53,334 nt of DNA from Thermoleophilia bacterium (GTDB lineage: Bacteria; Actinomycetota; Thermoleophilia; UBA2241): the NCBI GenBank assembly GCA_036277455.1, contig DASUMX010000253.1, forward strand, positions 1-53,334, written 5' to 3'. Of this stretch, positions 3,649 to 47,906 are shown in pieces. The position numbers and the translations under genes are program-made. Every line of letters starts with the position of its first letter. Within the stretch, counting starts at the first letter, position 1. A model generated the notes under the pieces. That model had not been told where the DNA came from, ran no database searches, and saw only the letters and a program-made list of their open reading frames with translations.

Positions 3649-3653
3649 CCCGA

Positions 3654-6335: not shown

Positions 6336-6442
6336 ACGCCCCCCTGGCGTCGAGACGAGTACTCCGTCGGCGATCCCGGCTTCACACCGGCTGGCACGGG
6401 CACGCTCTGCCTGACCTCAACCCTCCTGCCGCGTTACGGGAA

Positions 6443-6458
6443 TGATATACCGATATCA
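6443..6458. promoter_or_regulatory. Perfect palindrome TGATAT-ACCG-ATATCA, putative operator upstream of livHMGF
   Basis: TGATAT at 6443-6448 and ATATCA at 6453-6458, 108-123 nt upstream of the livH start. AT-rich island in a GC-rich gap. The same 6-N4-6 motif recurs at 10559, 18455 and 21250. An extra TGATAT half-site lies at 6566-6571. Confidence 0.6.
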
Positions 6459-6599
6459 GTCTTTGACAAGCGACCTGCCGGGATGGCCCTCCCGCCCGCC
6501 TCAGGCTGTGTGCTGGCTGCCCGTGTCAGGCACCGTTCGCCGCGCCTTCGGGCCGTCATCTCCCCTGATATCGGGAGTACAGCCACACGGGGGCAAGGG

Positions 6600-6636
6600 G
6601 GAGGGGGCTCACGGTCTTGCGCCGTGAGCCCCCTCC
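6600..6636 (-). terminator. Strong hairpin after the binding-protein gene (terminator or attenuator between the SBP and permease genes)
   Basis: 15-bp perfect stem (6600-6614 pairs with 6622-6636) with a 7-nt loop tcttgcg, starting 45 nt downstream of the SBP stop. No U-tract. Confidence 0.55.
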
Positions 6637-6680
6637 GTGCTCGCGAACGACGAGGCGCCGCGGGCGCCCGCGCCGCCGAG

Positions 6681-7919
6681 CTACTTCTGATCGTGCAACA
6701 GGCCCTCGTAGGTGAAGACCGGCACCCACGCGATGCGGTCGCCCACCTGCTTGGTCTCCATCATGTAGTAGTTGCCGGTGCCCACGAACATGTCCTGGTA
6801 CGCGCTCATCTTGTAGGGGCCGGCCGGCGTATCGATGGTCACGCTCGACATGGCCTCCTTGAGCTTGTCCGGGGAGGTGTCGCCGCCGTTGGCCTCGACG
6901 GCGCCGGCGAACAGGTTCACGGCCAGCCAGGCGCCGAACGACTGCATGGTCGGGTACTCGCCGTCCTCCTGCGCCTTGTAGGCCTCGACGAACTCCTTGT
7001 TCACGGGGTTGTCGATCTCCGGGGTGTAGAACTCGCCGCCGATCAGGCCGACTCCCACCTCTCCGAGGTCCCTGAGCTGCGGCTCGGTGAGGTTGCTGGC
7101 CATGGCCGTGATGAGCGGGGCCTCGAGGCCGTAGTCGTTGTACTGCTTGACGAAGGGCGCAGCGCCGTTGCCGAAGATCCACCAGTACGTGCAGTCGGCG
7201 TCCTTGAGCGTCGTGAGGTAGGAGCTGAAGTCGACCGCGTCGATCGGCACGAACTGCGTGCTCAGGATCTTGCCGCCGGCCTCTTCGAAGCCGTGGTTGA
7301 ACCCCTCCTGGAGCTGGCGGCCGGCCGTGTCCTCGTAATTGATGCAGTTGGCCGTCTTCCAGCCCATCTCCTCCGCCGCGTACTTGCCGGTCTGGTAGCC
7401 GGCGAACGAGAACAGGCCGCTGGGGACGAACGAGAGGCCGTTGGCGGTCTTCATGTTGTCGATCGGCTGCCCGTAGATGGAGATCGACGGGATGCCGCCG
7501 CCGCTCTTGGCCAGATAGTCGGTGACCGCCGCGTTCGCCGGTGAGAAGATCGGGCCGATCATGACGTGGATACCGTCGTTCTCGACGAGCTGGCGGGCCT
7601 TGTCCACTGCCTGGACGGGGTCGGAACCGTTGTCGGCCTTGATGTACTCGACGGGCCGGCCCGCGATCTGTCCCCCGAGCTGGTCGATGGCGAGCTTGAT
7701 GCCCTTGTCGGTCATCGTCGCATCGACCGCCATGAACCCGGTGAAGCCCTCATCGAACCCGATCTTGATCGGCTCGCCGGTCGCTGCGGCGGCGGGCTCG
7801 GCGGATTCGGTGCTGCGGGAGTCGGTCGTCTCCGACCCACAAGCCGCCAGAACGAGGGCGCCGAAGGCTCCGAGAACGAGTACGAGCGCCAGGACGGCGA
7901 ACACGACTTTCCTCTGCAT
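6681..7919 (-). CDS. Liv-type (type I periplasmic binding fold) substrate-binding lipoprotein
   Basis: Internal ATG at 7919 of ORF 6681..8498 gives MQRKVVFAVLALVLVLGAFGALVLAACGSE, a signal peptide with lipobox LAAC. The mature part (IKIGFDEGFTGFMAVDATMTDKGIKLAIDQL...) is LivK/ABC-type amino-acid or aromatic-acid binder-like. Confidence 0.85.
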   Translation of the reverse strand: MQRKVVFAVLALVLVLGAFGALVLAACGSETTDSRSTESAEPAAAATGEPIKIGFDEGFTGFMAVDATMTDKGIKLAIDQLGGQIAGRPVEYIKADNGSDPVQAVDKARQLVENDGIHVMIGPIFSPANAAVTDYLAKSGGGIPSISIYGQPIDNMKTANGLSFVPSGLFSFAGYQTGKYAAEEMGWKTANCINYEDTAGRQLQEGFNHGFEEAGGKILSTQFVPIDAVDFSSYLTTLKDADCTYWWIFGNGAAPFVKQYNDYGLEAPLITAMASNLTEPQLRDLGEVGVGLIGGEFYTPEIDNPVNKEFVEAYKAQEDGEYPTMQSFGAWLAVNLFAGAVEANGGDTSPDKLKEAMSSVTIDTPAGPYKMSAYQDMFVGTGNYYMMETKQVGDRIAWVPVFTYEGLLHDQK

Positions 7920-8242
7920 TGTCAGTCCCCCTGAGAAGATGATCGGAAAGTAGTCGGTGTGCTGCGCTGCCGAAACGGATGCGACGCGCCGGCGCTCCTG
8001 GGGTCCCTCCGCCGTGACCGCCCGTCCGCTGCGACGGGAGACGGCGACCCTGCTGCCGGTCGCGAAGCTGAGGTGCTGCGGGTCCCTGCTCCTTTCGTCG
8101 GCCCTCGCCGCTGTGAGGACGAGCCTCCCCTGAAGGCCCATTGTCCAGAACGGCCAGTTCTCTGCGTCCCCGTAGTGCAAAGGGTAAGGGTGCAAGGTAC
8201 CGCACGCGGCCGCACGCTGCAAGTGCCACGAGGCGAAGCGGA

Positions 8243-9064
8243 CTACTCGTGGGTCGTCACGTTGAGCAGGGTCGCCCGTGCAGAGATCGGCGTCGTGGCC
8301 AGAGCTCCGAAGTCGCTGCCCTCGTACCCGAACAGCCTGCCGTTGGAGCGCTTGGCTCTCCAGTCCACCAGGACCACGCCGAGCGTCGGGATGACCTTCT
8401 CGCGCCACACGAAGAGGTAGAGTTCCTCGCCGACCTTGCGGTAGTGACAGCGGTCGGTGTCGGCGAGTCCCCGCTCCGCCCCGCGCAGGCACTGCCACGT
8501 GTAGAGGTCCCGGCTCAGGTAGATGTGCTCGTACGCCTCGGTCTGGCTGTAGACGTACTGCACGCGCTTGCCCACGAGGTCGTCCGTGGGCACGTGCGGG
8601 TGCGCCCCGGGCACGAACGGACCGTCGATGACGGCCGGCACGATGCCGGCGGCGACGAGCGTGAGCTCCGTCCCTCCCGTCGCCAGCGCGAACGCCCCGC
8701 GCGCGGCCTGGTCCGCCGTCGGCAGGGTGCCGACGACGGTGGTCGCCGCGCTCCGCGCCAAGTCGAGCACGATGGTCACGGCCGTGGCTCGCCGGGTGCT
8801 GGCCACGTAGTCGACGACGGCCACCTCCTCGCGAGGCCGCGTGATGTGGCAGGTCTCCTCGCCCGTCTCACCCGCGCCCGGCCCGGCGGTGACCTCCCAG
8901 GAGAGCCGACCGCCCCGCGCGAACGACAGCGCCGTGACCGTCGCGTCCTCGGCGTGAAGGCTCAGTGACCTGCCGGCGAGGGCGTCGTCGGCCGGCAGGG
9001 TGCCCTCGCTGATGTCCTTGACGAGCTCACCGACCTGAATGAAGCGAAGGGCCTCGTCCGCCAT
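8243..9064 (-). CDS. MoaF-like protein (MoaF N- and C-terminal domain pattern), function unknown
   Basis: 273 aa. The N-terminus FIQVGELV...LPADDALAGRSLSLH and the C-terminal YTWQCLRGAERGLADTDRCHYRKVGEELYLFVWREKVIPTLGVVLVDW resemble the MoaF family as I remember it. No search was run. Confidence 0.5.
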   Translation of the reverse strand: MADEALRFIQVGELVKDISEGTLPADDALAGRSLSLHAEDATVTALSFARGGRLSWEVTAGPGAGETGEETCHITRPREEVAVVDYVASTRRATAVTIVLDLARSAATTVVGTLPTADQAARGAFALATGGTELTLVAAGIVPAVIDGPFVPGAHPHVPTDDLVGKRVQYVYSQTEAYEHIYLSRDLYTWQCLRGAERGLADTDRCHYRKVGEELYLFVWREKVIPTLGVVLVDWRAKRSNGRLFGYEGSDFGALATTPISARATLLNVTTHE

Positions 9065-9110
9065 GAGCGCCTCCCTTGTCAGATCACGCTCTCTCTGCGA
9101 CGCGCCGAGG

Positions 9111-10496
9111 TCAGTACCCCTTGAGGATGTCGATCATTATCTCCGTGGCCCTGACCGCGTAGTCGCGCGGCACGGTGAGCGGCGGCATGAAGCGGAACAC
9201 GTTCGCGTGCCGCCCGCATGGCGTCATGAGGATGCCGCTGTTGAGCAGCTTGAAGGCGATCTCGGCGACCTTCTCGCCGGCCAGCGGCTCCTTGGTGTCG
9301 CGGTCCTCGACCACTTCGATGCCGACCATCAGGCCGTTGCCGCGCACGTCGCCGATGACGGGCACGTTCGGCATGGCGTCGACGAACATCCCCTTGATCT
9401 CCTCGCCCAGGACGGCGGCGCGACCGATCAGGTCGGTGGCGGGATCGGTGAGGATGTCGATGTTGGTCATCGCGACCTCGCACCCCATCGCGTTGCCGGC
9501 GAAGGTGCTCGGCTGCGAGCCCTCACGCAGCGCCCCTTCCATCTCGGAGCGATAGGTGACTCCGGCCATGGGCATGTCGCCGCCCATGCCCTTGCCCCAC
9601 GTGAGCATGTCGGGGACGACCTTGGAGTGCTGGACGGCCCACATCCTGCCGGTGCGGCCGGCGCCCGACTGCACTTCGTCGGCGATGTACAGGCACCCGT
9701 TCTTCTCGCAGGCCGCCTTGATCATCTCCAGGAACTCCGGCGGGGGCGCGATGTAGCCCCCCTCGCCCTGCTGCGACTCGATGACCACGGCGGCGACGTC
9801 GTCGGCGCCCGTGTACGGGCCGTTGAGGATGTCGTCCACGTACTTGCCGCACTGGACGTCGCAGCCCGGGTACTCCAGGCCGAACGGGCAGCGGTAGCAG
9901 TACGCGTACGGCAGGTGCTGGACGCCGGCGATCAGCGGGCCCCAGCCGTGGCGGTAGTTGTAGGACGTGGTCATGGCCGCGGTGCCGCACCAGACGCCGT
10001 GGTAGGCGCCGTGGAAGGCGATGAGCTGAGAGCGGCCGGTGTAGGCGCGGGCGAACTTGATCGCCGTCTCGACGGCGTCGCTGCCTGCCTGATAGACGGC
10101 CGTGTGGCACTCGCCGGCAAGACCGTCGGGCATGATGCCCGAGACCTTCCTGGCAAGCTCGATGCGCTTGGGGTTGGTGATGTCCGTGGTGTGCATGATG
10201 ACGTCGCACTGGCGCCGGATGGCCGCGAGGACCTTGGGGTGGTTGCGTCCCACGGCGTTGACCGCCACGCCCGCGGCCATGTCGATGTACATGTTGCCGT
10301 CGGCGTCCTTGACGGTCACGCCCTTGCCCTGCTCGAGGATGACAGGGAAGCCGCCGCCGCCGCGAGTGAACGATTCGTACCTGGCCGACTCCTCCATCAG
10401 TGCGAGCACCTTGGGACCCGGCGCCTCGGTCACCATGCTCGGCGCATCCGGCCAGGACAGCTCCATCAGGTGTGCTTCGAGTGCTTCAGCGTTCAT
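9111..10496 (-). CDS. Class-III PLP-dependent aminotransferase (omega/beta-amino-acid or aminoacyl-CoA transaminase type)
   Basis: Motifs FHGAYHG, DEVQSGAGRTGRMWA and TWGKGMGGDMPMAG (PLP-lysine region). I prefer the ATG at 10496 (GAGG 8 nt upstream) over the track's GTG at 10514. Confidence 0.85.
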   Translation of the reverse strand: MNAEALEAHLMELSWPDAPSMVTEAPGPKVLALMEESARYESFTRGGGGFPVILEQGKGVTVKDADGNMYIDMAAGVAVNAVGRNHPKVLAAIRRQCDVIMHTTDITNPKRIELARKVSGIMPDGLAGECHTAVYQAGSDAVETAIKFARAYTGRSQLIAFHGAYHGVWCGTAAMTTSYNYRHGWGPLIAGVQHLPYAYCYRCPFGLEYPGCDVQCGKYVDDILNGPYTGADDVAAVVIESQQGEGGYIAPPPEFLEMIKAACEKNGCLYIADEVQSGAGRTGRMWAVQHSKVVPDMLTWGKGMGGDMPMAGVTYRSEMEGALREGSQPSTFAGNAMGCEVAMTNIDILTDPATDLIGRAAVLGEEIKGMFVDAMPNVPVIGDVRGNGLMVGIEVVEDRDTKEPLAGEKVAEIAFKLLNSGILMTPCGRHANVFRFMPPLTVPRDYAVRATEIMIDILKGY

Positions 10497-10558
10497 GGGC
10501 GTCACCTCGTTCACATCGAGTCTGCGACCGATCCGCTCGTCGCGGCAGAGTCGCTACA

Positions 10559-10574
10559 TGATACTGCAATACCA
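10559..10574. promoter_or_regulatory. Degenerate copy of the TGATAT-N4-ATATCA motif upstream of the aminotransferase/MoaF-like pair
   Basis: TGATAC-TGCA-ATACCA, one mismatch per half-site, 63-78 nt upstream of the ATG at 10496, inside a relatively AT-rich gap of about 200 bp. Confidence 0.4.
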
Positions 10575-10713
10575 CATGACGACAAGGAGACTACGCGTAC
10601 TGCGGCATGCGTGGCCGCGGTAGTTCGGAGAACGACGCAGCCGCGCAAACGGCGCTGGTGCAGGAGGTCGATGGTCGCGATGATCTGCCCGGTCTGACTG
10701 CGCACTCCGGATG

Positions 10714-11610
10714 TCAGATCGCGGCCAGGGCCTCTGCAACGAGGACGGGTGTCTCGTCTGGACGGCGGGCGACCGGGATGCCCGCCGCCTCGAGTGCAGC
10801 GGCCTTGGCGGCCGCCGTGCCCGACGACCCCGAGATGATCGCGCCGGCATGACCCATGCGCTTGCCGGGCGGAGCCGTGAAACCGGCGATGTAGGCGACC
10901 AGCGGCTTGGTGAGGTGCTCGGCTGCGAAGCCGGCGGCGCGTTCTTCGTCGTCGCCGCCGATCTCGCCCACCAGCACCACGGCCTCGGTCTGCGTGTCCG
11001 CCTCGAAGAGTTCGAGGCACTCCCGGAAGCCAAGCCCATGGATGGGGTCCCCGCCCATGCCCACGCAGGTCGACTGCCCCAGACCTGCGCGCGTGAGGCC
11101 CATGGCGATCTCGTACGTCAGGGTCCCGCTGCGGGAGACGATACCTACGCGGCCGGGCCTGAACAGCGACGCCGCCATGATCCCGGCATTGCACCCGTCC
11201 GGCGTGACGATGCCCGGGCAGTTGGGACCGATGAGGACGAAGGGCCGCTCGGCGACTCTGCCATCGTCCAGCTTGAGCTCCGCGACGGCCTCGCTCATGT
11301 CGCGGACGGGGATGCCCTCCGTGATGAGCACGGCGACACGGACGCCGCCCTCGGCGGCCTGGACGACGGCCGCCTTCGCGAAGCGGGCCGGTACGAAGAT
11401 GACGCTCACGTCCGCACCGGTGGCCTGGACGGCCTCGCCCACGGTGTCGAAGACCGGCAGTCCGCAGGCGGACTGGCCGCCCTTGCCCGGGGTGACGCCG
11501 GCGACCACAGAAGTGCCGGCGGCGAGCATACGCTCGGTGTGGAAGGTGCCTTCTCGGCCAGTCATGCCTTGCACAAGGACCCGGCTGGACTTGTCGACGA
11601 GGATGCTCAT
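10714..11610 (-). CDS. sucD: Succinyl-CoA synthetase alpha-subunit-like (ADP-forming acyl-CoA ligase alpha)
   Basis: Internal ATG at 11610 of ORF 10714..12231 gives [24 protein letters not shown]... It has the catalytic-His loop GHAGAIISG. The start overlaps the sucC stop (ATGA, 11607-11610). Confidence 0.85.
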
Positions 11611-12761
11611 GCCCGGCTCCCGGTCTTCGCCGCTGCGACGACGGACTCGACGGCCTCCTGGGCGCTCAGCGTGACGCTCAGGCCGTCGATCCCCGCCGCG
11701 GCGATCAGCTGCAGTCCCTCCGCGGCGTTGTTGCCGTCGAGGCGCACGACGAGCGGGAGATCGACGCCGGTCGTCTCGAGCCAGGCGAGCACGCCGCGGG
11801 CGACCTCGTCCCCGCGCGTGATACCGCCGAAGATGTTGACGAGCAGCGCCCGGACGCGGTCGTCGGACGTGATGATGTCGAGAGCGGCGGCGATGCGCTC
11901 TGCGCGCGCGCCGCCGCCGACATCGCAGAAGTCCGCCGCGGCGCCACCGGCGGCGCCGATCATGTCGAGCGTGCTCATGACGAGACCGGCGCCGTTGCCC
12001 AGCACGCCCACGTCGCCGTCGAGCGTGAGATAGGTGACGCCGGCCTCCCGAGCGGCGCGCTCCCGGGCGTCCTCGTCCGGCCGCTGCGCGGCGAGGTCGG
12101 GCTGACGGTACAGCGCGTTGTCGTCGATGGTCACCTTGGCGTCGAGAGCGACGAGTCGGGCGGGATCGCGAACGACCGCCAGCGGGTTGACCTCGACCAG
12201 CGATGCGTCGCGCTCGCGGTAGAGCGTCCACAGACGGTCCACGAGGTCGCCGAGCTGCTCGTCCAACTGCGTATCGCCGAGCGCCGCGGCGGCGACGACC
12301 GCGTCGCGCGGCCCGCCGCAGTCCGGCGACACAGCATCGAGCGGCAGCCGCAGCAACGCGGCGGGATCCTGCTTCGCCACCAGCTCGATGTCGACGCCGC
12401 CGCGCGCCGAGAAGATGAGCAGCGGCGCCTTGGCGTGGCGGTCAAGGGTGACGGCCAGATACAGCTCGCGCATCACCGAAGCGCCCTGCTCCAGCAGCAC
12501 GCTGTGGACCGGCTTGTCCTTGATGATCAGCCGGAGGATCGCCGAGACGGCCTCGCCGAGCTCCTGCGGCCGCGTGACCACGCGCACGCCGCCGGCCTTG
12601 CCCCGGCCGCCCGTGAGCACCTGAGCCTTCACGGCGAGCGGGTAGCCGAGCTCTGCCGCCGCGCGCTCGGCTTCCTCCTCGGTGAAGACGACCCGCGACG
12701 GAAGCACGGGGATGCCCGCGGCCGCGAAGAGCTCCTTACCCTGGTGTTCGAACAGGTCCAC
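11607..12761 (-). CDS. sucC: Succinyl-CoA synthetase beta-subunit-like (ATP-grasp)
   Basis: 384 aa, GTG start preceded by GAGG. N-terminus [19 protein letters not shown], and GGRGKAGGV typical of SucC. Confidence 0.85.
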
Positions 12762-12793
12762 TGGTCTACCTCATCGCCTGGCGGCCTCGGCCC

Positions 12794-13576
12794 TTACTGC
12801 CCGGTGCCGAAGCGGAAGGTCTGATCCGGGTCGATCACGGCCAGCACCCGCACCATGCAGCCGTCGCCGCCCGGCCAGCGCCACGGCAGCGCGAGAAACG
12901 TGCAGCGCTTGCCGGTGACCTCGTCCAGGTCGCCGCCGACGTTCTCGATGCCCGGGATGCCGCCCTCGCACATGAGGATCTTGTGCGCCGGCTCCCAGCT
13001 GGGGAAGTCCGCCTTGGCGTCGCGGCCGGTGAACTCCTTGTACTCGTCGATGAGGTGTGGCTGTGTCGGGCCGAGACCGTGGTCGACGAGCTTGGTGGCG
13101 ATGGGGTGATCGTTGGCCTGGTGGCCGTAGCCCACCAGCTTGACCTTTCTGTCGACCAGCCACCGGGCGCCCTCGGCGCCCATGCCGCAGCCGTAGGCGA
13201 AGTACTCGTCGGTGTCTCCCCACAGACGGTGGAAGCCCGTGTTGATCATGACGATGTCGCCCTCTTCGATCTTCGGCGTCGCGTTCTCCAGGTCCTCGGG
13301 CGTGATGACGCCCCACTTGCCCTTGGGGATGTCGACGCAGACGCCCGTACCGACGAGCCGCCAGAGCGGATAGTCGGCGATGCTCGGCGTGTTCTCGGTG
13401 ACGTGGAGCGGGGCGTCCATGTGGGTGCAGCGGTGCATGATGCCCTCCCACTCCACCTCGTAGACGCCGTCCTTGGCATGGAACTTGCTCACCTTGACGT
13501 TGACGCTCGGCGTGGACGGCCACTCCGGGATGAACTGGGTGAACGTGTGGCTCAGGTTGTAGACCTTCAGACTCAT
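12794..13576 (-). CDS. Cyclase-family metal hydrolase, paralog 1 (kynurenine formamidase/isatin hydrolase fold; candidate dihydrophloroglucinol cyclohydrolase)
   Basis: 260 aa. The family motif is present as HRCTHMDAPLH (Cys replaces the usual Gly). It shares the C-terminal block TGRDAKADFPSWEPAHK...GGDLDEVTGKR with the next gene. Confidence 0.75.
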   Translation of the reverse strand: MSLKVYNLSHTFTQFIPEWPSTPSVNVKVSKFHAKDGVYEVEWEGIMHRCTHMDAPLHVTENTPSIADYPLWRLVGTGVCVDIPKGKWGVITPEDLENATPKIEEGDIVMINTGFHRLWGDTDEYFAYGCGMGAEGARWLVDRKVKLVGYGHQANDHPIATKLVDHGLGPTQPHLIDEYKEFTGRDAKADFPSWEPAHKILMCEGGIPGIENVGGDLDEVTGKRCTFLALPWRWPGGDGCMVRVLAVIDPDQTFRFGTGQ

Positions 13577-13604
13577 GTCCGGTTCCCTTCTCGTCCGCGG
13601 ATCG

Positions 13605-14411
13605 TCAGTCGCCGGCGTCGATACGCAGGTCGCCGGACGGGTCGAGCATGGCGATCATCCGCACCGGGCAAGCGTCTCCGTGCTCGAACTTCCAGGGAGT
13701 CGCCGCGACGGTGGCGCGCTTGCCCTTGACGAGGTCGACGTCGCCGCCCACCTGCTCGACCGTCGGGATGCCGGCGGCGGCCAGGGTCTTGTGGGCGGGG
13801 AACCAGTCCGGAAAGTCCTCTTTGGCGTCCCGGCCGGTCGCCGCCGAGTACTCGACGGCGAGGCGCTTCATCTGCGGCCCGCCGCGGTGCGGCCCCATGG
13901 AGGTGGCGAGCGGCATATCGATGAACGGCGTGTCCACGGCCACGAGCTTCGGGTCCTTCTTGATGAGCCATTCGGCCGCGTCCCGGGTGAGGCCGGGAGC
14001 CTCGCCGAAGTACTCGAGACCGTCCGAGTAGTTGTGATGCCAGCCGGTGACGATGACGACGATGTCGCCGTCCTGCACCGCCGGCGTGGCCGCCTCGAGG
14101 TCGGCGGCCGTGACGGCCTCCCAGCTCTTCCTGGGGATATCGAGCACGGCGGCATTGCCGAACAGGCGGTCCGGGGAGACGGCCGCCAGGTCGTCGCCGC
14201 GCTGGACCATGTGGATGGGCGCGTTCATGTGCGTGCCCGTGTGCAGGCTGGTGGTGACGCGCCAGGCGAGCACGCCGTGCTGGGCGTGCTTGACGGCGCG
14301 CACCATGCGCACGTCCAGCTGTCCCGGCTCGGACGGGACGCCGTGGCCCCACACGTGGCTCAGCTCGATGAGCTGCAATCCCGAGTAGGGATCGGTGACC
14401 ACATCTGTCAT
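13605..14411 (-). CDS. Cyclase-family metal hydrolase, paralog 2
   Basis: The ATG at 14411 (inside ORF 13605..14873) is preceded by AAGGAGAGAGAG and gives MTDVVTDPYSGLQLIELSH... The motif is HTGTHMNAPIH (Asn replaces the usual Asp). It is paralogous to 12794-13576. Confidence 0.75.
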   Translation of the reverse strand: MTDVVTDPYSGLQLIELSHVWGHGVPSEPGQLDVRMVRAVKHAQHGVLAWRVTTSLHTGTHMNAPIHMVQRGDDLAAVSPDRLFGNAAVLDIPRKSWEAVTAADLEAATPAVQDGDIVVIVTGWHHNYSDGLEYFGEAPGLTRDAAEWLIKKDPKLVAVDTPFIDMPLATSMGPHRGGPQMKRLAVEYSAATGRDAKEDFPDWFPAHKTLAAAGIPTVEQVGGDVDLVKGKRATVAATPWKFEHGDACPVRMIAMLDPSGDLRIDAGD

Positions 14412-14452
14412 CTCTCTCTCCTTCATGGTGGTCAGCCCGGCGGACCTGCCGG

Positions 14453-15646
14453 CTACCCGACGGCCTCGACGATCGTGGCCATGCCCTGGCCGCCCGCGAT
14501 GCAGATGCCGGCGAGCCCGTACCGCGTGCCACGCCGGCGCATCTCGTAAAGCAGCGTCGTCAGGATACGGGCGCCCGAGCAGCCCAACGGGTGGCCGAGC
14601 GCGATGGCGCCGCCGTTGACATTGACGATCTCCTGGCCGAGCTCCAGCTCCTTGACCACGGCGAGGCTCTGCGCCGCGAAGGCCTCGTTGACCTCGATCA
14701 GGCCGACGTCCGACAGCGCGATCCCGGCGCGCTGGAGGGCCTTGCGCGCAGCGGGCGCCGGGCCGATGCCCATGATGCGCGGGTCCACAGCCGCGGTGGC
14801 CTGCGCACGGATGGTCGCCATGGGCCTGATGCGGCGGGCCTTGGCCGTCTCCGCATCCATGAGCACGAGACACGCGCCACCGTCGTTGCGTCCCGAGGAG
14901 TTGCCCGCGGTGACGCTGCCGCCCTGCTTGAAGACAGGCTTGAGCTTCGCCAGCTGCTCGAGGCTCGTCTTGCGTGGGTGCTCGTCGGTGTCGAACACGA
15001 CGGACTCGCCCTTGCGCTGCGGTACCACGACAGGGACGATCTCATCCTTGAAGCGGCCGCTCGCGATGGCGTCGGCAGCGCGCTCCTGACTCTGCAGCGC
15101 GAACGCGTCCTGCTCCTCGCGCGAGATGTCGTACTTCTCGGCGAGGTTCTCCGCCGTGAGGCCCATGGTGAGGTCGCCGTAGACCTCGTAGGGCTGGGAG
15201 CGCGGCTGGCTCTCCGTGTTGGAGTCGACCACGACGGTGTTGCCGGAGGTGAAGCCGAAGCGGGCGCCGCGCAAGTAGTACGGCGCCAGGCTCATGCTCT
15301 CGACGCCGCCGGCAACGACGATGTCGGCTTCTTCGGCGCGGATGACCTGGACTGCGTTGTGGATGGCCTGCAGCCCGGAGCCGCACTGGCGCATGACCGT
15401 GTAGGCCGGCACCTCCACCGGGAAGCCGGCCTTGAGCGCCGCCACCCGCGCGAGGTTGGCGGCGTCGGCGCTCTGCTTGGTCTGGCCGATGATGACCTCG
15501 TCGACCGACGGCGGCTCCACCCCGGCACGCTCGACGGCGGCGAGGATCACGATCTTCGCGAGCTCCTCGGGCTGGACGCTCTTGATGGCGCCTCCGACGC
15601 GCCCGAGGGCGGTGCGGGCGGCAGAGACGATGACGACGTCACGCAT
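14453..15646 (-). CDS. Acetyl-CoA C-acetyltransferase (thiolase II)
   Basis: 397 aa. MRDVVIVSAARTALG, active-site regions RQCGSGLQA, NEAFAAQ and GHPLGCSGARI, and C-terminal CIAGGQGMA. Confidence 0.9.
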   Translation of the reverse strand: MRDVVIVSAARTALGRVGGAIKSVQPEELAKIVILAAVERAGVEPPSVDEVIIGQTKQSADAANLARVAALKAGFPVEVPAYTVMRQCGSGLQAIHNAVQVIRAEEADIVVAGGVESMSLAPYYLRGARFGFTSGNTVVVDSNTESQPRSQPYEVYGDLTMGLTAENLAEKYDISREEQDAFALQSQERAADAIASGRFKDEIVPVVVPQRKGESVVFDTDEHPRKTSLEQLAKLKPVFKQGGSVTAGNSSGRNDGGACLVLMDAETAKARRIRPMATIRAQATAAVDPRIMGIGPAPAARKALQRAGIALSDVGLIEVNEAFAAQSLAVVKELELGQEIVNVNGGAIALGHPLGCSGARILTTLLYEMRRRGTRYGLAGICIAGGQGMATIVEAVG

Positions 15647-15661
15647 GGGCGACCACCATCC

Positions 15662-16438
15662 TCAGACGAAGGACATCGTGCCGCCGTCCACGTACAGGAC
15701 GGTGCCGGTGATGAAGTCGGAGGCCGCGGAGGCGAGGAAGACCGAGGGGCCCACGAGGTCGTCAACGTGGGCCATTCGCCCCATGGGCACGTTGAGCAGC
15801 ATGCGCTCGTAGCGCGCCGCCTCGTTGCTGATGCGCTCGGCCGTCATCGGCGTCACCGTGATGATGGGGCCGAGCGCGTTGACGAAGACCTTGTGCTGCG
15901 CAAGCTCGCAGGCGAGCTGCTTGGTGATCATGTCGACGGCGCCCTTGCTCGCGCAGTAGGCGCTGTTGCCGCCGAGCGCGCCGCGCTGGCCGCGCACCGA
16001 CGAGAGGTTGATGATCTTGCCCCCGCCCTGCTTGACCATCTGGGCGCCGAAGTGCTTGCAGGACATCATGACGCCCTTGACGTTGACGCTGAAGAGCTTG
16101 TCCCACTCGTCCATCGGGAACTCGGTGGCCGCGCCCTTGACGTTGTACCCGAGCGCGTTCACGAGCACGTCCACGCGGCCACCCATGTCGGCCACCGTGC
16201 TGTCGACCACACCCTTGACGCTGGCCTCGTCCGTACAGTCGATGACGTAGCTGCGCACCGGCTTGCCGGTCGCTTCCACGAGGGCCGCGGCGACCTGCTC
16301 GAGCGCCTCCGGGTTGACGTCCGCCAGCGCGACGTCCGCGCCGTAGCGGATGAGTCCCGCGGCGATGGCCCGGCCCATGCCGCCCGCGCCGCCCACGACG
16401 ACGGCGGACTTGCCCTCGAGTGAAAAGAGATCCTCCAT
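15662..16438 (-). CDS. Short-chain dehydrogenase/reductase (candidate phloroglucinol reductase)
   Basis: 258 aa. Rossmann motif VVGGAGGMGRAI and catalytic YCASKGAV (YxxxK). Classical SDR. Confidence 0.85.
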   Translation of the reverse strand: MEDLFSLEGKSAVVVGGAGGMGRAIAAGLIRYGADVALADVNPEALEQVAAALVEATGKPVRSYVIDCTDEASVKGVVDSTVADMGGRVDVLVNALGYNVKGAATEFPMDEWDKLFSVNVKGVMMSCKHFGAQMVKQGGGKIINLSSVRGQRGALGGNSAYCASKGAVDMITKQLACELAQHKVFVNALGPIITVTPMTAERISNEAARYERMLLNVPMGRMAHVDDLVGPSVFLASAASDFITGTVLYVDGGTMSFV

Positions 16439-16455
16439 TGCCCGGTCCCCTTCCC

Positions 16456-17313
16456 TCAGTACTTCTTGACGACGCCGAGGATCTCGCGAGCCTCGTCGGG
16501 CGTGGCAGGCTCGAGATTGAGCTCCCTGGCGATGCGGACGGTCCGTTCGACAAGCTGCGCGTTGCCCTCGGCAAGCACGCCCTTCTTGTAGTAGATGTTG
16601 TCCTCAAGCCCGACGCGCGCGCAGCCGCCCATGATCATGCCCATGGTGGTGATGGGAAGCTCGGCGGCGCCGGTGGCCGTCGTGTTGAAATAGGCGTCCT
16701 GCGGCATGAACTGGTACATCGAGTACAGGGTGTCGGGGTTCGCCTCGATCGCGCCCTGATGCATCATGCCGAGCACGAAGTTGATGTAGTACGGCGGCTC
16801 GATCAGGTCCTTCTTGATGAGATTGTGCACGTCCCGGTACATGCTCTGCGAGTAGCACTCCATCTCGGGCTTGATGTGCATCTCTTTCATCTTGGCCGCC
16901 CACGCCTCGATGTCTTTGGTCATGTTCGAGAAGGGCTCTCCGGCGTTCGGACCCGTCTGACGCATCAGCGTTCCCATGTTGAGCGAGGCCATCTCCGGGT
17001 CGGCGTCCAGACACGAGACGCGCTCCTCGATGGAGAGGTTGGTCCCGCCGCCGGTCGAGAACTGGACGATGACTTCCCTGCACTCGGCCTTGACGGCAGC
17101 CTGGATCTCGGCGAACTTCTCCTTCGTGCCGGCGGGCTTGCCCTGCTCGTCACGGGCGTGGATGTGGACGATCGCAGCGCCGGCGTCGTAGCACTCACGG
17201 GAGGCGCGCGCGATCTCGTCCGGCTGCTCCGGCACGTTGGGGTTCATGGCCTTGTTGACGAACGCGCCGTTGAGCGACGCGGTGATGATGACTTTGCCTC
17301 GCGGGAGCTTCAT
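16456..17313 (-). CDS. Beta-keto acid cleavage enzyme (BKACE, DUF849 family; candidate triacetate acetoacetate-lyase)
   Basis: The ATG at 17313 is preceded by GGAGGGA (the track starts at a GTG at 17328). VIITASLNGAF...IVHIHARDEQGKP and the TIM-barrel BKACE pattern are present. Confidence 0.8.
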   Translation of the reverse strand: MKLPRGKVIITASLNGAFVNKAMNPNVPEQPDEIARASRECYDAGAAIVHIHARDEQGKPAGTKEKFAEIQAAVKAECREVIVQFSTGGGTNLSIEERVSCLDADPEMASLNMGTLMRQTGPNAGEPFSNMTKDIEAWAAKMKEMHIKPEMECYSQSMYRDVHNLIKKDLIEPPYYINFVLGMMHQGAIEANPDTLYSMYQFMPQDAYFNTTATGAAELPITTMGMIMGGCARVGLEDNIYYKKGVLAEGNAQLVERTVRIARELNLEPATPDEAREILGVVKKY

Positions 17314-17384
17314 GGTCCATCCCTCCACTTCTTGCCGGGTGAGCCGGCCGGTCTCCGTGACTTCGCACGGCGCGCAGGCCGGTC

Positions 17385-18344
17385 TCAGACGCGCTTGTAG
17401 ATCAGGTCCTTCGACTGGTTGAAGACCTCGATGAGGGCATCGTCGCGGGTCCTGAGGACCTCACGCAGGTCTCTGTCGCTGTAGTCGAAGAAACCCTTAC
17501 CGCTCTTGACGCCCAGCTCGCCCTTCTCGACGTGCCCGACGAGGCTGCTCGGCGCATTGTCGATCGGCGGCTCGAGGAAGTCCGAGTTCTGCAGGTTGTT
17601 CAGACTCAGGTCGAGACCCGTGAAGTCATACCGCTGCACGAATCCCAGCACCATCGCCCGCGGGATGATGCTCGCCTTCACCGCAAGGTCGAGTTGTTCG
17701 GCAGTCATGTAGCCGTTGTCGAGGAGGAAGAAGACCTCGCGGCCGATTATGCGCAGGAACCGGTTGATGCAGAAACCCGGGACGAACTTCTCCATGACCA
17801 CGGGCACGCGGTCGACCTTCTTGAGCAGTGCGACGACGAGCTCGACCGTCTCGTCCGAGGTCGACTCACCCTTGACGACCTCAACGAGCGGGATGATCTG
17901 CGGCGGCGCGAACCAGTGAGCGATGACGGTGTCGGGCAGACGCCGCTCGGGGACCACCTGGTAGATGTCGAGGTACGACGTGTTGCTCGTGAAGATGGCG
18001 CCGTCCGGACACGCCCGGTCCAGGTCGGCGAACACCGCGCGCTTCGCCTCCAGGTTCTCGGCGATGCTCTCGATGACGAGGTCGGCGCCGGCGCCGGCCT
18101 CTTCGACCGACTGCGTCGTGGTGATACGAGCCAGCGCTGCCGACACGTCGTCGCGGCTGAGGAGGCCGTGCCCCGCGAACGTCTGCATGTTGGCGGCGGT
18201 GACGGACATCGCCTTTTCGAGCGTCGCCGCGGAGCGTGAGTACAGTGAGACCGGGTGTCCCGCACAGGCGAACACCTGGGCAAGACCTGGTCCCATGGTG
18301 CCGGCCCCGACGACTGCTACCTTCTTGACGTCCATGACATCCAC
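17385..18344 (-). CDS. 3-hydroxyacyl-CoA dehydrogenase-family NAD-dependent dehydrogenase (free beta-hydroxy-acid or acyl-CoA substrate)
   Basis: 319 aa, GTG start preceded by GAGGAG. KKVAVVGAGTMGPGLAQVFA Rossmann motif, with both the 3HCDH N- and C-domain pattern. First gene of the operon. Confidence 0.85.
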   Translation of the reverse strand: MDVMDVKKVAVVGAGTMGPGLAQVFACAGHPVSLYSRSAATLEKAMSVTAANMQTFAGHGLLSRDDVSAALARITTTQSVEEAGAGADLVIESIAENLEAKRAVFADLDRACPDGAIFTSNTSYLDIYQVVPERRLPDTVIAHWFAPPQIIPLVEVVKGESTSDETVELVVALLKKVDRVPVVMEKFVPGFCINRFLRIIGREVFFLLDNGYMTAEQLDLAVKASIIPRAMVLGFVQRYDFTGLDLSLNNLQNSDFLEPPIDNAPSSLVGHVEKGELGVKSGKGFFDYSDRDLREVLRTRDDALIEVFNQSKDLIYKRV

Positions 18345-18454
18345 TGCTGCGGCTCCTCACGTTCGACGCCGACCGTCCACTGGCGCGGTGAGGAGTCTCC
18401 CCCGCGTTGGAGGAAGTCCGCGGTCAAGAGGCGACCCGCCACGCTACCGCACAA

Positions 18455-18478
18455 TGGTATCGCCATATCACAATATCA
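18455..18478. promoter_or_regulatory. TGGTAT-CGCC-ATATCA plus an extra ATATCA half-site; putative operator of the hbd-like/BKACE operon
   Basis: A 6-N4-6 site with one mismatch at 18455-18470, 111-126 nt upstream of the GTG at 18344. A third ATATCA sits at 18473-18478. It lies between the iclR stop and the operon start. Confidence 0.5.
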
Positions 18479-18586
18479 GCGAGCGCGGACTGTAGCAACA
18501 TACGCGGGTCATCACGCGGACCTCCTGCATGCGAGGTCCTTTGCGCGGGTCGCGTGGATCCGGCGGCCGCGCGTGACGAGCCGGTG

Positions 18587-19435
18587 TCAGACTCGCGCGT
18601 CGGCCCCGGCGTAGCCCAGGAACCCCGAGAGCGCCGCGGCGGACGCCTTCACCGCGCTCACGCAGGTCTCGCGCTGCTCTGTGCCGAAGCGGCCGGTCGG
18701 CACGATGACGCCGATGCTGCCGATGACGTGACCCATCTGGTCCCGGACGGGCGCGGCCACGGCGCACGTGCCCAGGTTGCGCTCTTCGATGTCGAAGGCG
18801 ACGCCCTCCTCGCGCACCCGTCGCAGCTCCGCGGCGAGCTCCTCCGGATCGGTGATGGTCCGGGGCGTGAGCCGCTCGTGCGGCAGCGAGAGCAGGCGCT
18901 CGCGTTCGCCGTCCGGCATCGACGCCGCGTACATCTTGCCGTGTGCATTGGCGGTGTCGCCGATGACGCGGCCGACGGCGACCTCACGCTTGTGCGGCCG
19001 CGGGGAGTCGAGCATGTCGACGCACACGGCCACGCCGTCGACGTCCACGGCGAGCGTCGCGGACTCGCCCGTCTCCTCGACGAGCGCCTGCAGGTACGGG
19101 CGAGCGATGGCCACCAGCTCGGCGTAGCCCTCCGAGAGGTACGTCGCGGCGAGAAGGGCCGGGCCGAGACGGTAGCGCCCGCTCTGCGTGTCCGTGACGA
19201 GATAGCCGGCGCTCTGCAGGGTCCGGGCCATGCGGTAGCCGGTCATGCGCGGGAGCTGGAGCTCCGAGACCATCTCGTCGAGGGTCCACTCGCGATGCTC
19301 GGCGTCGAAGAGACCGAGCATCGCCAGCCCTTTCGCCAAGGCGCGGACGACGAACGCCTCTGCGCCCGCCTCCAGCGGTCCGTTGGCGGCCGGCTGCCGC
19401 TTCTTCTTCCCAGCCTTGCGCGTCTCTTTGGCCAT
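18587..19435 (-). CDS. IclR-family transcriptional regulator
   Basis: Internal ATG at 19435 of ORF 18587..19771 gives MAKETRKAGKKKRQ... It has the wHTH LDEMVSELQLPRMTGYRMARTLQSAGYL and a C-terminal IclR effector domain (GTCAVAAPVRDQMGHVIGSIGV). Confidence 0.85.
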   Translation of the reverse strand: MAKETRKAGKKKRQPAANGPLEAGAEAFVVRALAKGLAMLGLFDAEHREWTLDEMVSELQLPRMTGYRMARTLQSAGYLVTDTQSGRYRLGPALLAATYLSEGYAELVAIARPYLQALVEETGESATLAVDVDGVAVCVDMLDSPRPHKREVAVGRVIGDTANAHGKMYAASMPDGERERLLSLPHERLTPRTITDPEELAAELRRVREEGVAFDIEERNLGTCAVAAPVRDQMGHVIGSIGVIVPTGRFGTEQRETCVSAVKASAAALSGFLGYAGADARV

Positions 19436-19461
19436 GGCCCCTGTCTTCTTTCTCTCGTGGA

Positions 19462-21174
19462 TCAGCTCGTGAACATCGCGTCCAGGTCGGCCTCGGCGAC
19501 GTCGTACCGGGTACCGGACGGCAGGACCGCCTCCTCCGTGATGAACGCCGGAGGGCGGTCGTCCTTGGCCGTGAAGCCGGCGCGGCGGTTGAAGTCGCGC
19601 TCCCCGCGTACGATCTGGTCGCCCATCCTGATGAGGTAGTCCTCGGGGAGCGCCTCGCCGGTGATGGCCGCCGCAGCCTTGACGAACTCCCCCTGCAGCT
19701 CCGGCATGTCGAGCGCGGGGAGTGTCGCGAAGAGGCACATGCCCAGCGAGTCGATCGCGGCGAAGTAGCACTGCAGGAACTCGGAGATCTGTGCCTGCCC
19801 CTCGGCGGAAGCGGGATCGTAGGTCGGATTGGCCGGACTGGGCAGGGCGTTGCCCGCGGTGTGGTCGGCGCCCTGCGGGCTGGTGATGTAGGTGGTGCCG
19901 GTGCCCTTGAGCACGCGCGGGTCGTAGGCCGCGAAGCTCTGGCCTTTGACCGCGGGAACGCGGGCGACGCCGAGGCGCTGCCCGGTCGTGACGCAGCCGT
20001 CGGCGAGCATGCGCGCGTCGGCGTCGCCGTCCCTGAGCTTGCTGAGCAGCGCGAACGCCCCTTCGCCGTCGCCCCAGTCGAGCAGGCCGCCCTCCATGGC
20101 GACGCCCATGGCGGCGCCGACTTCCATCGTGTCGAGCCCGAGGTCGTCGCAGAGGCGATCGAGCCGTGCGATCTGGTCGAGGTCCTTGATGTGGCAGTTC
20201 GAGCCCATCAGCCCGAGCGTCTCGAACTCGACGCCGGAGGTGATGACCTCGCCGGCGTCGTCCGTGTACACCTGCGAGCAGTTGATGATGCAGCCCTTCA
20301 TGCAGCTGTGCTTGGTGGCCCCATTGGGACGCGCGGAGATGATCTCGACCATGTGCTCGCCGCTGATGTCCGGCGCGTTCTCCCAGGTCCCGGCGGAGAA
20401 GTTCCTGGTGGCCAGGCAGCCCATGGACTGCGTGACGGTGACGAGGAACGCCGAGCCGAGCGCCTCGAGGGCGGCCATGGCCGGATGCGAGTGGATGCCG
20501 GTGGCGAGAGCCTTGGAGGCCTCCTTGAGGGCGTCCTTGTCGGCGACGACGACGCCCGGCCCCCCTGCGGCGTCGACGACGATCGCCTTGAGGTTCTTGG
20601 AGCCCATCACGGCGCCCAGACCGCCGCGTGCAGCCGCGCGCATGTGATGGTCGGGCGTGGTGACGAGGACCGCGGCGGCCTTGGCGCCCATCTCCCCCGC
20701 CGGGCCGGTGCAGATGAGCGAGACCTTGTCGCCGTACTGCTCCCAGAGGCGCTCCGCGGTGGCGAACGAACCGAGGCCGGCGAGCTCCGGCGCCGGGACG
20801 AGCGTGCCGCCGCCCGCCGTGACCACCAGGACCGACGTCTCGTCGGCCTGCCCCGTCACCTTGAGGGCGCGCAGGCCGAGCTCGGCCAGCGCACGCGCGG
20901 CCGAGCCGCCGGAATTTGCCTCCTTGATGCCTCCGGTCAGCGGGCTCTTGCCCCCCACGGAGAGACGCCCGCCGTTGGGGACGACGGTGCCCGCGAAGAG
21001 TCCGGCGGCATACACCAGGACGTTGCCGGGTCCGAGGGGATCGGCCTCGGGATGGACTTCACCGCAGACGATGGCCGAGGTCAGGCCATGGCCACCCAGC
21101 GGCTCGAGGTCCGCACCCAGCGGCTCCCTCGCCACCGCGCCACTCGTCAGGTCGACGTTGAGGAGGTCGGTCAC
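19462..21174 (-). CDS. Aldehyde:ferredoxin oxidoreductase family (tungstopterin, 4Fe-4S)
   Basis: 570 aa. AOR N-domain GGHGLTSAIV...GGRLSVGGKSPLTGGIKEANSGG, a Cys cluster HSCMKGCIINC, and the later DSLGMCLF. Only 26 nt separate it from iclR. Confidence 0.85.
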   Translation of the reverse strand: MTDLLNVDLTSGAVAREPLGADLEPLGGHGLTSAIVCGEVHPEADPLGPGNVLVYAAGLFAGTVVPNGGRLSVGGKSPLTGGIKEANSGGSAARALAELGLRALKVTGQADETSVLVVTAGGGTLVPAPELAGLGSFATAERLWEQYGDKVSLICTGPAGEMGAKAAAVLVTTPDHHMRAAARGGLGAVMGSKNLKAIVVDAAGGPGVVVADKDALKEASKALATGIHSHPAMAALEALGSAFLVTVTQSMGCLATRNFSAGTWENAPDISGEHMVEIISARPNGATKHSCMKGCIINCSQVYTDDAGEVITSGVEFETLGLMGSNCHIKDLDQIARLDRLCDDLGLDTMEVGAAMGVAMEGGLLDWGDGEGAFALLSKLRDGDADARMLADGCVTTGQRLGVARVPAVKGQSFAAYDPRVLKGTGTTYITSPQGADHTAGNALPSPANPTYDPASAEGQAQISEFLQCYFAAIDSLGMCLFATLPALDMPELQGEFVKAAAAITGEALPEDYLIRMGDQIVRGERDFNRRAGFTAKDDRPPAFITEEAVLPSGTRYDVAEADLDAMFTS

Positions 21175-21248
21175 GGTCGCTCACATCCTTTCCCGGGCAC
21201 GGAGCGTCTCGCTCGCTCGTCCTCCCGCGCCCCGGTGCTGACCACGAA

Positions 21249-21266
21249 GTGATATGTATATATCAC
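21249..21266. promoter_or_regulatory. Perfect palindrome GTGATAT-GTAT-ATATCAC, putative operator upstream of aor-iclR
   Basis: 7-bp arms at 21249-21255 and 21260-21266, 76-91 nt upstream of the AOR GTG at 21174. This is the most AT-rich spot in the 158-bp gap. Confidence 0.6.
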
Positions 21267-21332
21267 TCCAACGACCTGAGCATTATGCGGCCAGACGCTC
21301 GCGCATGCAATAGAGCCGCGCGCGTGGACGCC

Positions 21333-24165
<2,833 letters not shown>

Positions 24166-24321
24166 CTATGTCCTCCCCGTCGCGCATCACGGCCGCTGCG
24201 GGACCCCGCGGCACAGGCCACACTTTCCATCAGGAGTGGACGGAAGTCAAGTAATAGAGGATACTGCTGCACAGGTCGGGTCTTTGACGCCCGCCACGGC
24301 GCTCCGCTACAGTCGAGGCCC

Positions 24322-47790: not shown

Positions 47791-47906
47791 CGGGCTCCTT
47801 TCGCGGGGCACCGATACTAGCAGAGATGACCCGTGGTCCTGGCGGGCGCGGAGGCGGCTCTGGTGAAAGGGCGCGACCCGATGGGAGCGTCGCGAGCGCG
47901 ACGCGG

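Follow-up and report, generated by a model that had tools for sequence, protein, structure and literature searches.

A 53,334-bp stretch of DNA (~69% G+C) from a Thermoleophilia bacterium, an uncultured soil or sediment actinobacterium, was analyzed at its full length and is referred to here as the window. It carries the palindrome TGRTAT-N4-ATAYCA (the consensus across loci; in extended form, (A/T)(A/T)G-TGRTAT-N4-ATAYCA-YT) in four promoter gaps of one minus-strand gene cluster. The evidence from sequence makes it probable that the palindrome serves as operator for the IclR-family protein whose gene lies at 18587-19435, and that this protein is an autoregulated repressor of four transcription units. 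These would be 1) a phloroglucinol-type catabolic operon encoding an SDR reductase, two cyclase-family hydrolases, a dehydrogenase, a BKACE lyase, a thiolase and a CoA ligase, 2) aor-iclR, control of which would give negative autoregulation, 3) a unit encoding an aminotransferase, MoaF and a binding protein and 4) a LivHMGF-type importer. In kind, this would be a standard local repressor with a palindromic operator, a case of ordinary local gene control; the prediction is a solid one, and the repressor is probably autoregulated.

The palindrome in the window

An earlier, sequence-only reading of the window had reported palindromes at 6443, 10559, 18455 (with an extra half-site) and 21250, and a pattern search recovered all of them with the mismatches given there. 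The pattern TGATATNNNNATATCA (TGATAT-N4-ATATCA) was searched for in the whole window with up to two mismatches, and 100 dinucleotide shuffles served as the null. Exactly five matches were observed and 0.03 were expected, so that recurrence by chance was as improbable as that reading had supposed; no shuffle gave five matches and the maximum was one. Two of the matches were perfect, 6443-6458 (TGATATACCGATATCA) and 21250-21265 (TGATATGTATATATCA), that at 18455-18470 (TGGTATCGCCATATCA) had one mismatch, and those at 10559-10574 (TGATACTGCAATACCA) and 18463-18478 had two, the last overlapping the 18455-18470 site. The arms of the palindrome at 21250, previously given as 7 bp, run to 8 bp (AGTGATAT/ATATCACT, spanning 21248-21267). 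When three mismatches were allowed, the window gained one further match only, at 6566-6581.

The four sites, designated operators A to D (Table 1), occupy four gaps: before aor (A), between iclR and the pathway genes (B), before the aminotransferase gene (C) and before livH (D). Every gene flanking the sites is on the minus strand, in a continuous run from ~2.9 to 24.2 kb. The sites all lie in non-coding gaps, as previously claimed, and the measured distances to the start codon, 63-111 nt, fall within the 60-125 nt proposed. A weight matrix gave no additional match over the other 30 kb of the window and scored operator C as the weakest site (23.9 bits vs 30-33 for the others). The motif is thus an inverted repeat of ~15-20 bp in the promoter regions of a regulator's own and neighbouring operons, which is the form of an IclR operator. 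Tandem sites 18-22 nt apart, as in tetramer-type operators, were not found; the window has its second copy at 18463, only 8 nt from the first, and this copy is unconserved.

Conservation across relatives

A one-genome-per-species scan with the cyclase-2 protein yielded 77 loci, taken with 10 kb of flank on each side and cited below as L001 and so on, to which all cluster proteins were mapped by tblastn. The closest of these loci (75-92% cyclase-2 identity) were Thermoleophilia metagenome-assembled genomes. An IclR orthologue (68-95% identity) was encoded in 18 loci, all near relatives of the window and nearly all labelled Thermoleophilia. The motif was present in 18/18 of them, always at orthologous promoter gaps and with diverging flanks.

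Class A sites lay about 75-78 nt before aor in L001, L004-L008, L010, L013, L062, L065, L072 and L160, with weaker copies in L003, L074 and L159. All 18 loci, and L002, L159 and L160 as well, had a class B site ~130 nt 3' of the iclR stop and before the first pathway gene, which was either the dehydrogenase or, where dehydrogenase, BKACE and thiolase were missing, the SDR. Orthologous class C sites (TGATATTGCAGTATCA) preceded the aminotransferase gene in 11 loci, mostly directly 3' of a second IclR paralogue. Class D lies 3' of the binding-protein gene, and L013 alone among the IclR loci reaches that far; a metagenome scan with LivH added about a dozen independent contigs (LivH 76-93% identity). 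The class D site in L013 and in these contigs reads TGATATCGGTATATCA, CGGT spacer included, and in the orthologous loci a TTGTCA or TTGCCA hexamer stands before it, always at the same offset.

The absence of the motif from orthologous clusters and its scattering through coding DNA had both been named in the sequence-only reading as observations that would speak against a regulon. Instead, the 18 loci and about a dozen metagenome contigs carried it, and a symmetrised 20-bp weight matrix, trained on sites with no more than one mismatch and applied at a threshold of at least 12 bits, matched solely orthologous promoter positions in ~385 kb of IclR-containing loci plus the window. As a motif-blind control for a matrix trained on pattern matches, the whole iclR-to-pathway gap was excised by gene coordinates only and aligned with MAFFT. 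The sole block of columns at least 90% identical was a-TGATAT-N4-ATAnCATT. Because an alignment blind to the motif singled out the palindrome, the motif is taken to be a selected cis element and not a chance recurrence; chance is excluded by the excess of matches and by the matrix scans.

The candidate regulator

The protein encoded at 18587-19435 belongs to the IclR family. It has an HTH_IclR domain (PF09339; 33.5 bits vs a cut-off of 22, at residues 144-194 of the long open reading frame) and an IclR_C domain (PF01614; 112.7 bits vs 24). In the PDB, 17 IclR-family chains matched at E <= 1e-10, the best being 2g7u (3.3e-26), and its relatives there include 2ia2, 8eju and 2xrn as well. The sequence-only reading had named it the only regulator within the interval, which stands; an adjacent XRE-cupin gene (24322-24927), just outside the interval, had been overlooked, though it does not co-occur with the motif. 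The co-occurrence of motif and IclR in 18/18 loci supports the proposal of that reading that one regulator would co-control the four units, with the qualification that a second paralogue imposes.

The site precedes aor-iclR in most loci. Three gene orders were seen, aor-iclR, iclR alone and iclR-aor, and the motif followed iclR through all three, not the XRE-cupin gene. Where aor was absent (L009), the site lay directly before iclR. In L158 (IclR 66% identical), which has the inverted order iclR-aor, a perfect TGGTAT-CTAA-ATACCA was located 82 nt before iclR. Nearly all of aor has been deleted from L014 (4831-5110), with the promoter, operator A and leader retained directly before iclR. The persistence of the site before iclR in L009, L014 and L158 supports autoregulation by the IclR protein, as had been suggested earlier.

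Candidate operators, predicted promoters and direction of control

Promoter positions and operator geometry were taken from consensus matches alone. A consensus promoter scan of 6000-22000 returned just two sigma-70-like sites, those of livH and the aminotransferase gene, and the motif overlaps both. Operator A begins 16 nt 3' of the aor -10, at ~+9 from the inferred start site, and TTGAAT/TTGCAT-17-CATAAT is conserved in most class A loci. The last base of the pathway-operon -10 is the first base of operator B (position 18470). Most class B loci have a TTGAAT-17-TACGGT pair with the operator 14 nt further 3'. In L009, L011 and the window, the left operator arm is directly adjacent to the -10 or overlaps it. 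The extra half-site of operator B (18463-18478) is specific to the window. At none of the four sites was the operator placed upstream of a predicted -35.

Table 1. Candidate operators, predicted promoters and genes of the cluster, in window coordinates
Feature	Position	Strand	Remarks
LivHMGF-type ABC importer: two permeases, two ATPases	2932-6335	-	Pfam; second ATPase by tblastn
Predicted livH promoter, TTGTCA-16-TATCAT	6442-6469	-	10/12 consensus matches; operator D fills spacer and -10
Operator D, before livHMGF: perfect palindrome, TGATATCGGTATATCA along transcription	6443-6458	-	108 nt before livH GTG (6335)
Candidate auxiliary half-operator: degenerate arm + N4 + ATATCA	6566-6581	-	3 mismatches; 123 nt 5' of operator D
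Periplasmic binding protein	6681 to about 7900	-	Pfam
MoaF	8243-9064	-	Pfam
Class-III aminotransferase	9111-10496	-	Pfam
Predicted promoter, TTGTCG-16-TATCAT	10558-10585	-	9/12 consensus matches; operator C fills spacer and -10
Operator C, before aminotransferase-MoaF-binding-protein unit: TGGTATTGCAGTATCA along transcription	10559-10574	-	2 mismatches; 63 nt before aminotransferase ATG (10496)
Pathway operon	10714-18344	-	Pfam
Operator B, before pathway operon: main site 18455-18470 and overlapping extra half-site 18463-18478	18455-18478	-	111 nt before GTG (18344) of 3-hydroxyacyl-CoA-dehydrogenase-like gene
Predicted pathway-operon promoter: -35 TTGCTA (18498-18493), 17-nt spacer, -10 TATTGT (18475-18470)	18470-18498	-	read from sequence
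iclR, 282-aa IclR-family regulator, candidate repressor	18587-19435	-	Pfam; start codon and ribosome-binding site
aor, aldehyde:ferredoxin oxidoreductase family	19462-21174	-	Pfam AFOR_N and AFOR_C
Operator A, before aor-iclR: AGTGATAT-N4-ATATCACT	21248-21267 (core 21250-21265)	-	76 nt before aor GTG (21174)
Predicted aor promoter: -35 TTGCAT (21310-21305), 17-nt spacer, -10 CATAAT (21287-21282)	21282-21310	-	read from sequence
Tyrosine phenol-lyase and MttB	21333-24165	-	Pfam
PuuR-like XRE-cupin regulator	24322-24927		divergent from MttB

The sequence-only reading had proposed co-control without a direction. Because the operators overlap predicted promoters or lie just 3' of them, the geometry fits repression, and the promoter overlap points to it. 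IclR proteins are dimers or tetramers, and in the usual mechanism of the family a small-molecule effector releases the protein from DNA. In the mechanism proposed here, an IclR dimer would bind one operator at each of the four promoters. The operator would fill the spacer and the -10 at two of them (livH and aminotransferase) and lie at or just 3' of the inferred start site at the other two (aor and pathway operon), in either case blocking RNA polymerase. On binding an effector to its C-terminal IclR domain, the protein would leave the DNA and the four units would be switched on together. The effector would most plausibly be phloroglucinol or an early pathway intermediate, since the unit consisting of the SDR and the cyclase pair was under the motif in all 18 loci while the other arms were less constant (aor, for instance, in 14).

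Two elements had been set aside in the sequence-only reading as isolated half-sites. One of them, GTGATAT at 199-206, fits that description; it lies ~80 nt upstream of a pyrogallol-hydroxytransferase-like gene, is unconserved in L009, L015 and L159, and a full site before that gene was rejected. The other, at 6566-6581, does not, since a comparable element lies 113-123 nt 5' of operator D in 10/15 loci; it may be an auxiliary low-affinity site.

The aor leader between operator A and the GTG (21175-21249, minus strand, 75 nt) shows hardly any variation among 12 species-level loci, including those whose AOR protein is only 70-74% identical. It holds a GAGCG...CGCTC hairpin and, immediately 3' of GGAAAGG, an ATG-TGA start-stop. 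No covariation was seen for the leader with RNAalifold. A known RNA element was considered and rejected, as Rfam was empty for the window at gathering thresholds and for the gaps 6300-6700 and 21150-21340 at E <= 1.

Points against the assignment and alternative readings

Several observations weigh against the proposed regulon or against parts of it. The most serious is that, in 501 kb of high-G+C loci without an IclR orthologue, the matrix had seven matches and no others (L020, L023, L025, L049, L071, L073 and L076, another Actinomycetota clade). Their motif is GTGGTAT-N4-AT[TA]TCAC, 39-50 nt 5' of the cyclase pair (cyclase-2 start). By tblastn there is no IclR gene within 10 kb on either side in any of the seven, and by Pfam the open reading frames of L073 include no regulator of any kind over the same span. 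An unlinked IclR orthologue may serve these sites or, alternatively, another protein may read the motif in this clade. It is mainly for this reason that confidence in the IclR assignment, although good, is not higher.

The remaining points concern single arms of the regulon or the evidence available for it. In L011 and L015, which are IclR loci, there is no site before iclR, so autoregulation is not universal. The aminotransferase gene lacks a site and adjoins a TetR-type gene in L005, L011 and L158 (called from Pfam domains for L158, and from the C-terminal sequence by eye for L005 and L011), and this arm of the regulon is therefore variable. A second IclR paralogue stands beside the aminotransferase site in most relatives, so that the one regulator may be two paralogues in some genomes. 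The NCBIfam subfamily scores of the IclR protein were all under the cut-off (130.7/284.75, 124.8/350, 97/275, 80/380 and 64/406); none of the named subfamilies tested for orthology (PcaR/PcaU/PobR, BhcR, KdgR, IclR and AllR) was reached, and therefore no characterised orthologue backs the effector assignment. Public RNA runs yielded short, low-depth contigs of mixed strains, without usable 5' ends. Finally, the motif fits neither published IclR consensus, GKTYCRYW3-4RYGRAMC or TGRAACAN1-2TGTTYCA, and it did not appear among the predicted sites in the part of the supplements of the largest comparative study that was covered (PMC8222616).

The alternative that survives best is a split regulon, in which the window IclR would serve operators A, B and D while operator C would be read mainly by the second paralogue, IclR2, encoded elsewhere in the genome. 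This arrangement is possible but doubtful. IclR2 (57-65% identical) is encoded in L001, L003, L004, L006, L007, L013, L062, L065, L072 and L074, and in these 10 loci it lies directly 5' of the aminotransferase gene (in L074, near the locus end) with the class C site between the two. Class C sites are marked by a G that opens the right arm (GTATCA), a feature which the window site shares, and operator C is the lowest-scoring of the window sites. Nevertheless, there is no IclR2 gene in the 53-kb window, and L014 retains a class C site even though tblastn found no IclR2 in ~3.8 kb upstream. A different specificity is not evident either, for the recognition helices of the two proteins, VSRMTAYRMARTL against LPRMTGYRMARTL, differ at only 3/13 positions; because they are nearly identical, some cross-talk between the two proteins is possible.

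A third IclR paralogue (49% identical; helix LLRMTTYRMVRTL) occurs in L015, divergent from a pyrogallol-hydroxytransferase-like gene. Facing it, at 18700-18731, are two ACGATATCG palindromes, ACGATATCGT-N12-ACGATATCGG, with centres 22 nt apart. This gives soft support to the suggestion that a helix of this type reads GATAT-like half-sites.

It is unlikely that a different factor, either unlinked or the PuuR-like XRE-cupin protein, binds the motif and that IclR is a co-regulated passenger. The dissimilarity of the motif to both canonical IclR consensuses, the related motif in the seven loci without a linked IclR, and the position of the XRE-cupin gene, 3 kb from operator A, would all be accommodated by such a factor. 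The XRE-cupin protein was nonetheless rejected as the regulator. Its orthologue is found in only 7/18 IclR loci (one a partial match), where it travels with the tyrosine phenol-lyase/MttB genes, whereas the motif is in 18/18, and its own divergent gap (24166-24321) has no site. The motif, by comparison, stays with iclR in all three gene orders and is found next to two independent IclR paralogues. Global regulators were rejected as well. The CRP/GlxR- and Rex-type consensuses have a GTGA-to-TCAC spacing of 6 nt, and here it is 10 nt; a global regulator would also be expected to have sites outside the cluster, and their absence from the other 30 kb of the window argues for a local one.

Still less probable is that IclR binds the operators as an activator or dual regulator in the manner of PobR and PcaU. 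Several members of the PcaR/PcaU/PobR subfamily are activators, and this subfamily (TIGR02431) is the named one that scored best for the window IclR (5.6e-38), although its 130.7 bits are far under the cut-off. The geometry argues otherwise: the only good promoter matches have operators C and D within their spacer and -10, operators A and B are 3' of conserved -35/-10 pairs, and no operator is 5' of a -35, where class I/II activators bind.

It is very improbable that the conserved block is no protein operator but a promoter element (an unusual or extended -10) or the product of chance. With one base added, the right arm does give TATCAT or TACCAT (TANNNT), and the left arm of the second clade, TGGTATAGT, resembles an extended -10. 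Against this, the two arms are symmetric and invariant to the same degree, the left one falls within the spacer, a part of the promoter that is not under constraint, and operators A and B have separate conserved -35/-10 pairs 5' of the palindrome.

Comparison with known IclR systems

An autoregulated IclR repressor of this kind would have many precedents. TtgV covers a 42-bp operator as a tetramer, and the window has, by contrast, single 16-20-bp palindromes without tandem sites 18-22 nt apart. E. coli IclR, AllR and KdgR and P. putida TtgV (PDB 2XRO) have, like the protein studied here, an N-terminal winged helix-turn-helix and a C-terminal IclR effector domain, and TtgV is among its PDB matches (2xrn, E 7.6e-16). 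Repressors of the family use inverted-repeat operators on or next to the promoter and exert local control, commonly with negative autoregulation, as is predicted here. The window protein is no orthologue of IclR, AllR, KdgR or TtgV, its NCBIfam scores being all sub-cut-off, and its operator is unlike the TGGAAA/TTTCCA-type boxes of IclR and AllR.

Members of the PcaR/PcaU/PobR subfamily control aromatic breakdown and are encoded beside their target operons, as would be the case for the window IclR. They differ in that their pathway is the beta-ketoadipate route, whereas the window would encode a reductive phloroglucinol route and its operator geometry points to repression; PobR and PcaU activate transcription from sites that lie 5' of the promoter, three boxes in the case of PcaU (PMC8222616).

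The largest comparative study of IclR operators, by Suvorova and Gelfand (2021), derived the two consensus types cited above and found tandem sites 18-22 nt apart to be frequent; its regulons were obtained by phylogenetic footprinting of palindromes beside IclR genes, the same type of inference as was used here (PMC8222616). The centres of the window sites, at -70 to -120, are within the range observed in that study, and their length, 16-20 bp, is similar to the even-length NGT-12-ACN subgroup (PMC8222616). In the window motif, GATAT/ATATC takes the place of the central YCR/RYG core of group 1 and of the GRAACA core that marks group 2, and in those tables of the study that were compared the recognition helix is typically xKSTAxRLLxTL, from which that of the window, PRMTGYRMARTL, departs (PMC8222616). 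Thermoleophilia are not among the taxonomic groups of its Table 2 (PMC8222616). The system would therefore appear to follow the classical scheme of an IclR-type repressor and its operator, but the sequence of this operator is so far undescribed.

The pathway and the proposed regulon

The gene map was made from third-position G+C and Pfam, with the second ATPase of the importer identified by tblastn, and the gene labels of the sequence-only reading agree with Pfam. The pathway operon is transcribed in the order 3-hydroxyacyl-CoA-dehydrogenase-like, BKACE, SDR, thiolase, cyclase 2, cyclase 1, and the SucC-like and SucD-like CoA ligase subunits. In aor-iclR, aor is the first gene and iclR the second, with a gap of 26 nt.

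The anaerobic phloroglucinol cluster of Clostridium scatologenes encodes PGR, an SDR phloroglucinol reductase, DPGC, a cyclase-family dihydrophloroglucinol cyclohydrolase, TfD, a 3-hydroxyacyl-CoA-dehydrogenase-like dehydrogenase, TAL, a BKACE-family triacetate lyase, and a thiolase, and phloroglucinol induces its genes (PMC10470551). The cluster also includes a transporter and a transcriptional regulator that was given no name and whose family and operator were not described (PMC10470551). The same five enzyme families (SDR, cyclase, 3-hydroxyacyl-CoA-dehydrogenase-like, BKACE and thiolase) are encoded in one minus-strand operon of the window, 12794-18344, and their homologues are co-located in a Flavonifractor contig (L053), F. 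plautii having been named as a carrier of the cluster (PMC10470551). The window differs in having a SucCD-like ligase in place of the CoA transferase, and its proposed regulon extends beyond the C. scatologenes enzymes to AOR, the aminotransferase, MoaF and the ABC importer. None of the pathway enzymes reached an NCBIfam equivalog cut-off (the BKACE protein scored 294 vs 382 for Kce and 209.7 vs 430 for 3,5-dioxohexanoate transferase), and the substrate assignment is therefore made at the level of cluster composition.

The two cyclase-family genes (12794-14426; ~40% mutual identity) form a tandem pair that is conserved in nearly all 77 loci, including the Flavonifractor contig, while the C. 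scatologenes cyclohydrolase was described as a single protein (PMC10470551). The pair may form a hetero-oligomer.

In the literature searched, no paper connected phloroglucinol catabolism with an IclR regulator or with Thermoleophilia, and no regulator-operator pair was found for the anaerobic phloroglucinol pathway. The present analysis predicts a concrete, testable regulon for this polyphenol pathway in an uncultured actinobacterial class that is present in many metagenomes from soils, sediments and fresh water. A phloroglucinol-type biosensor could be made from the operator-regulator pair, which would also extend the known DNA specificities of IclR proteins. By regulon content, AOR, the transaminase and the importer are linked to the pathway, which suggests candidate genes for upstream steps.

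A broader interpretation can be offered only tentatively. The IclR subfamily with the helix PRMTGYRMARTL would represent a third operator class, TGRTAT-N4-ATAYCA, and would sense phloroglucinol or the first reduced or ring-opened product. The co-control of a tungsten/molybdenum-type aldehyde oxidoreductase, an omega-type aminotransferase, MoaF and an amino-acid-type importer would then reflect an unrecognised feeder route that is coupled to polyphenol catabolism and turns an imported amine into an aldehyde and then into an acid, in uncultured Thermoleophilia that are widespread in soils and sediments. If either the phloroglucinol sensor of new specificity or the AOR/transaminase/importer feeder route were true, the significance of the system would rise.

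Other features of the window

The gene at 21333-22736 scored above the NCBIfam tyrosine phenol-lyase equivalog cut-off (784.9 vs 720.7). Together with a non-pyrrolysine MttB-family methyltransferase and the divergent XRE-cupin gene it forms one unit (21333-24927), which has no IclR-type site. At the other end, the cluster is adjoined by a molybdoenzyme gene (286-2886, plus strand) whose product resembles the pyrogallol hydroxytransferase large subunit. The binding-protein gene and iclR are each followed by a perfect GC-rich hairpin that lacks a T-tract (6591-6640 and 18500-18560, respectively); the one after iclR is kept in relatives, and both are probably terminators that separate the four transcription units. 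Further along, parB and parA at 46053-48054 indicate that the window is probably near the chromosomal origin region.

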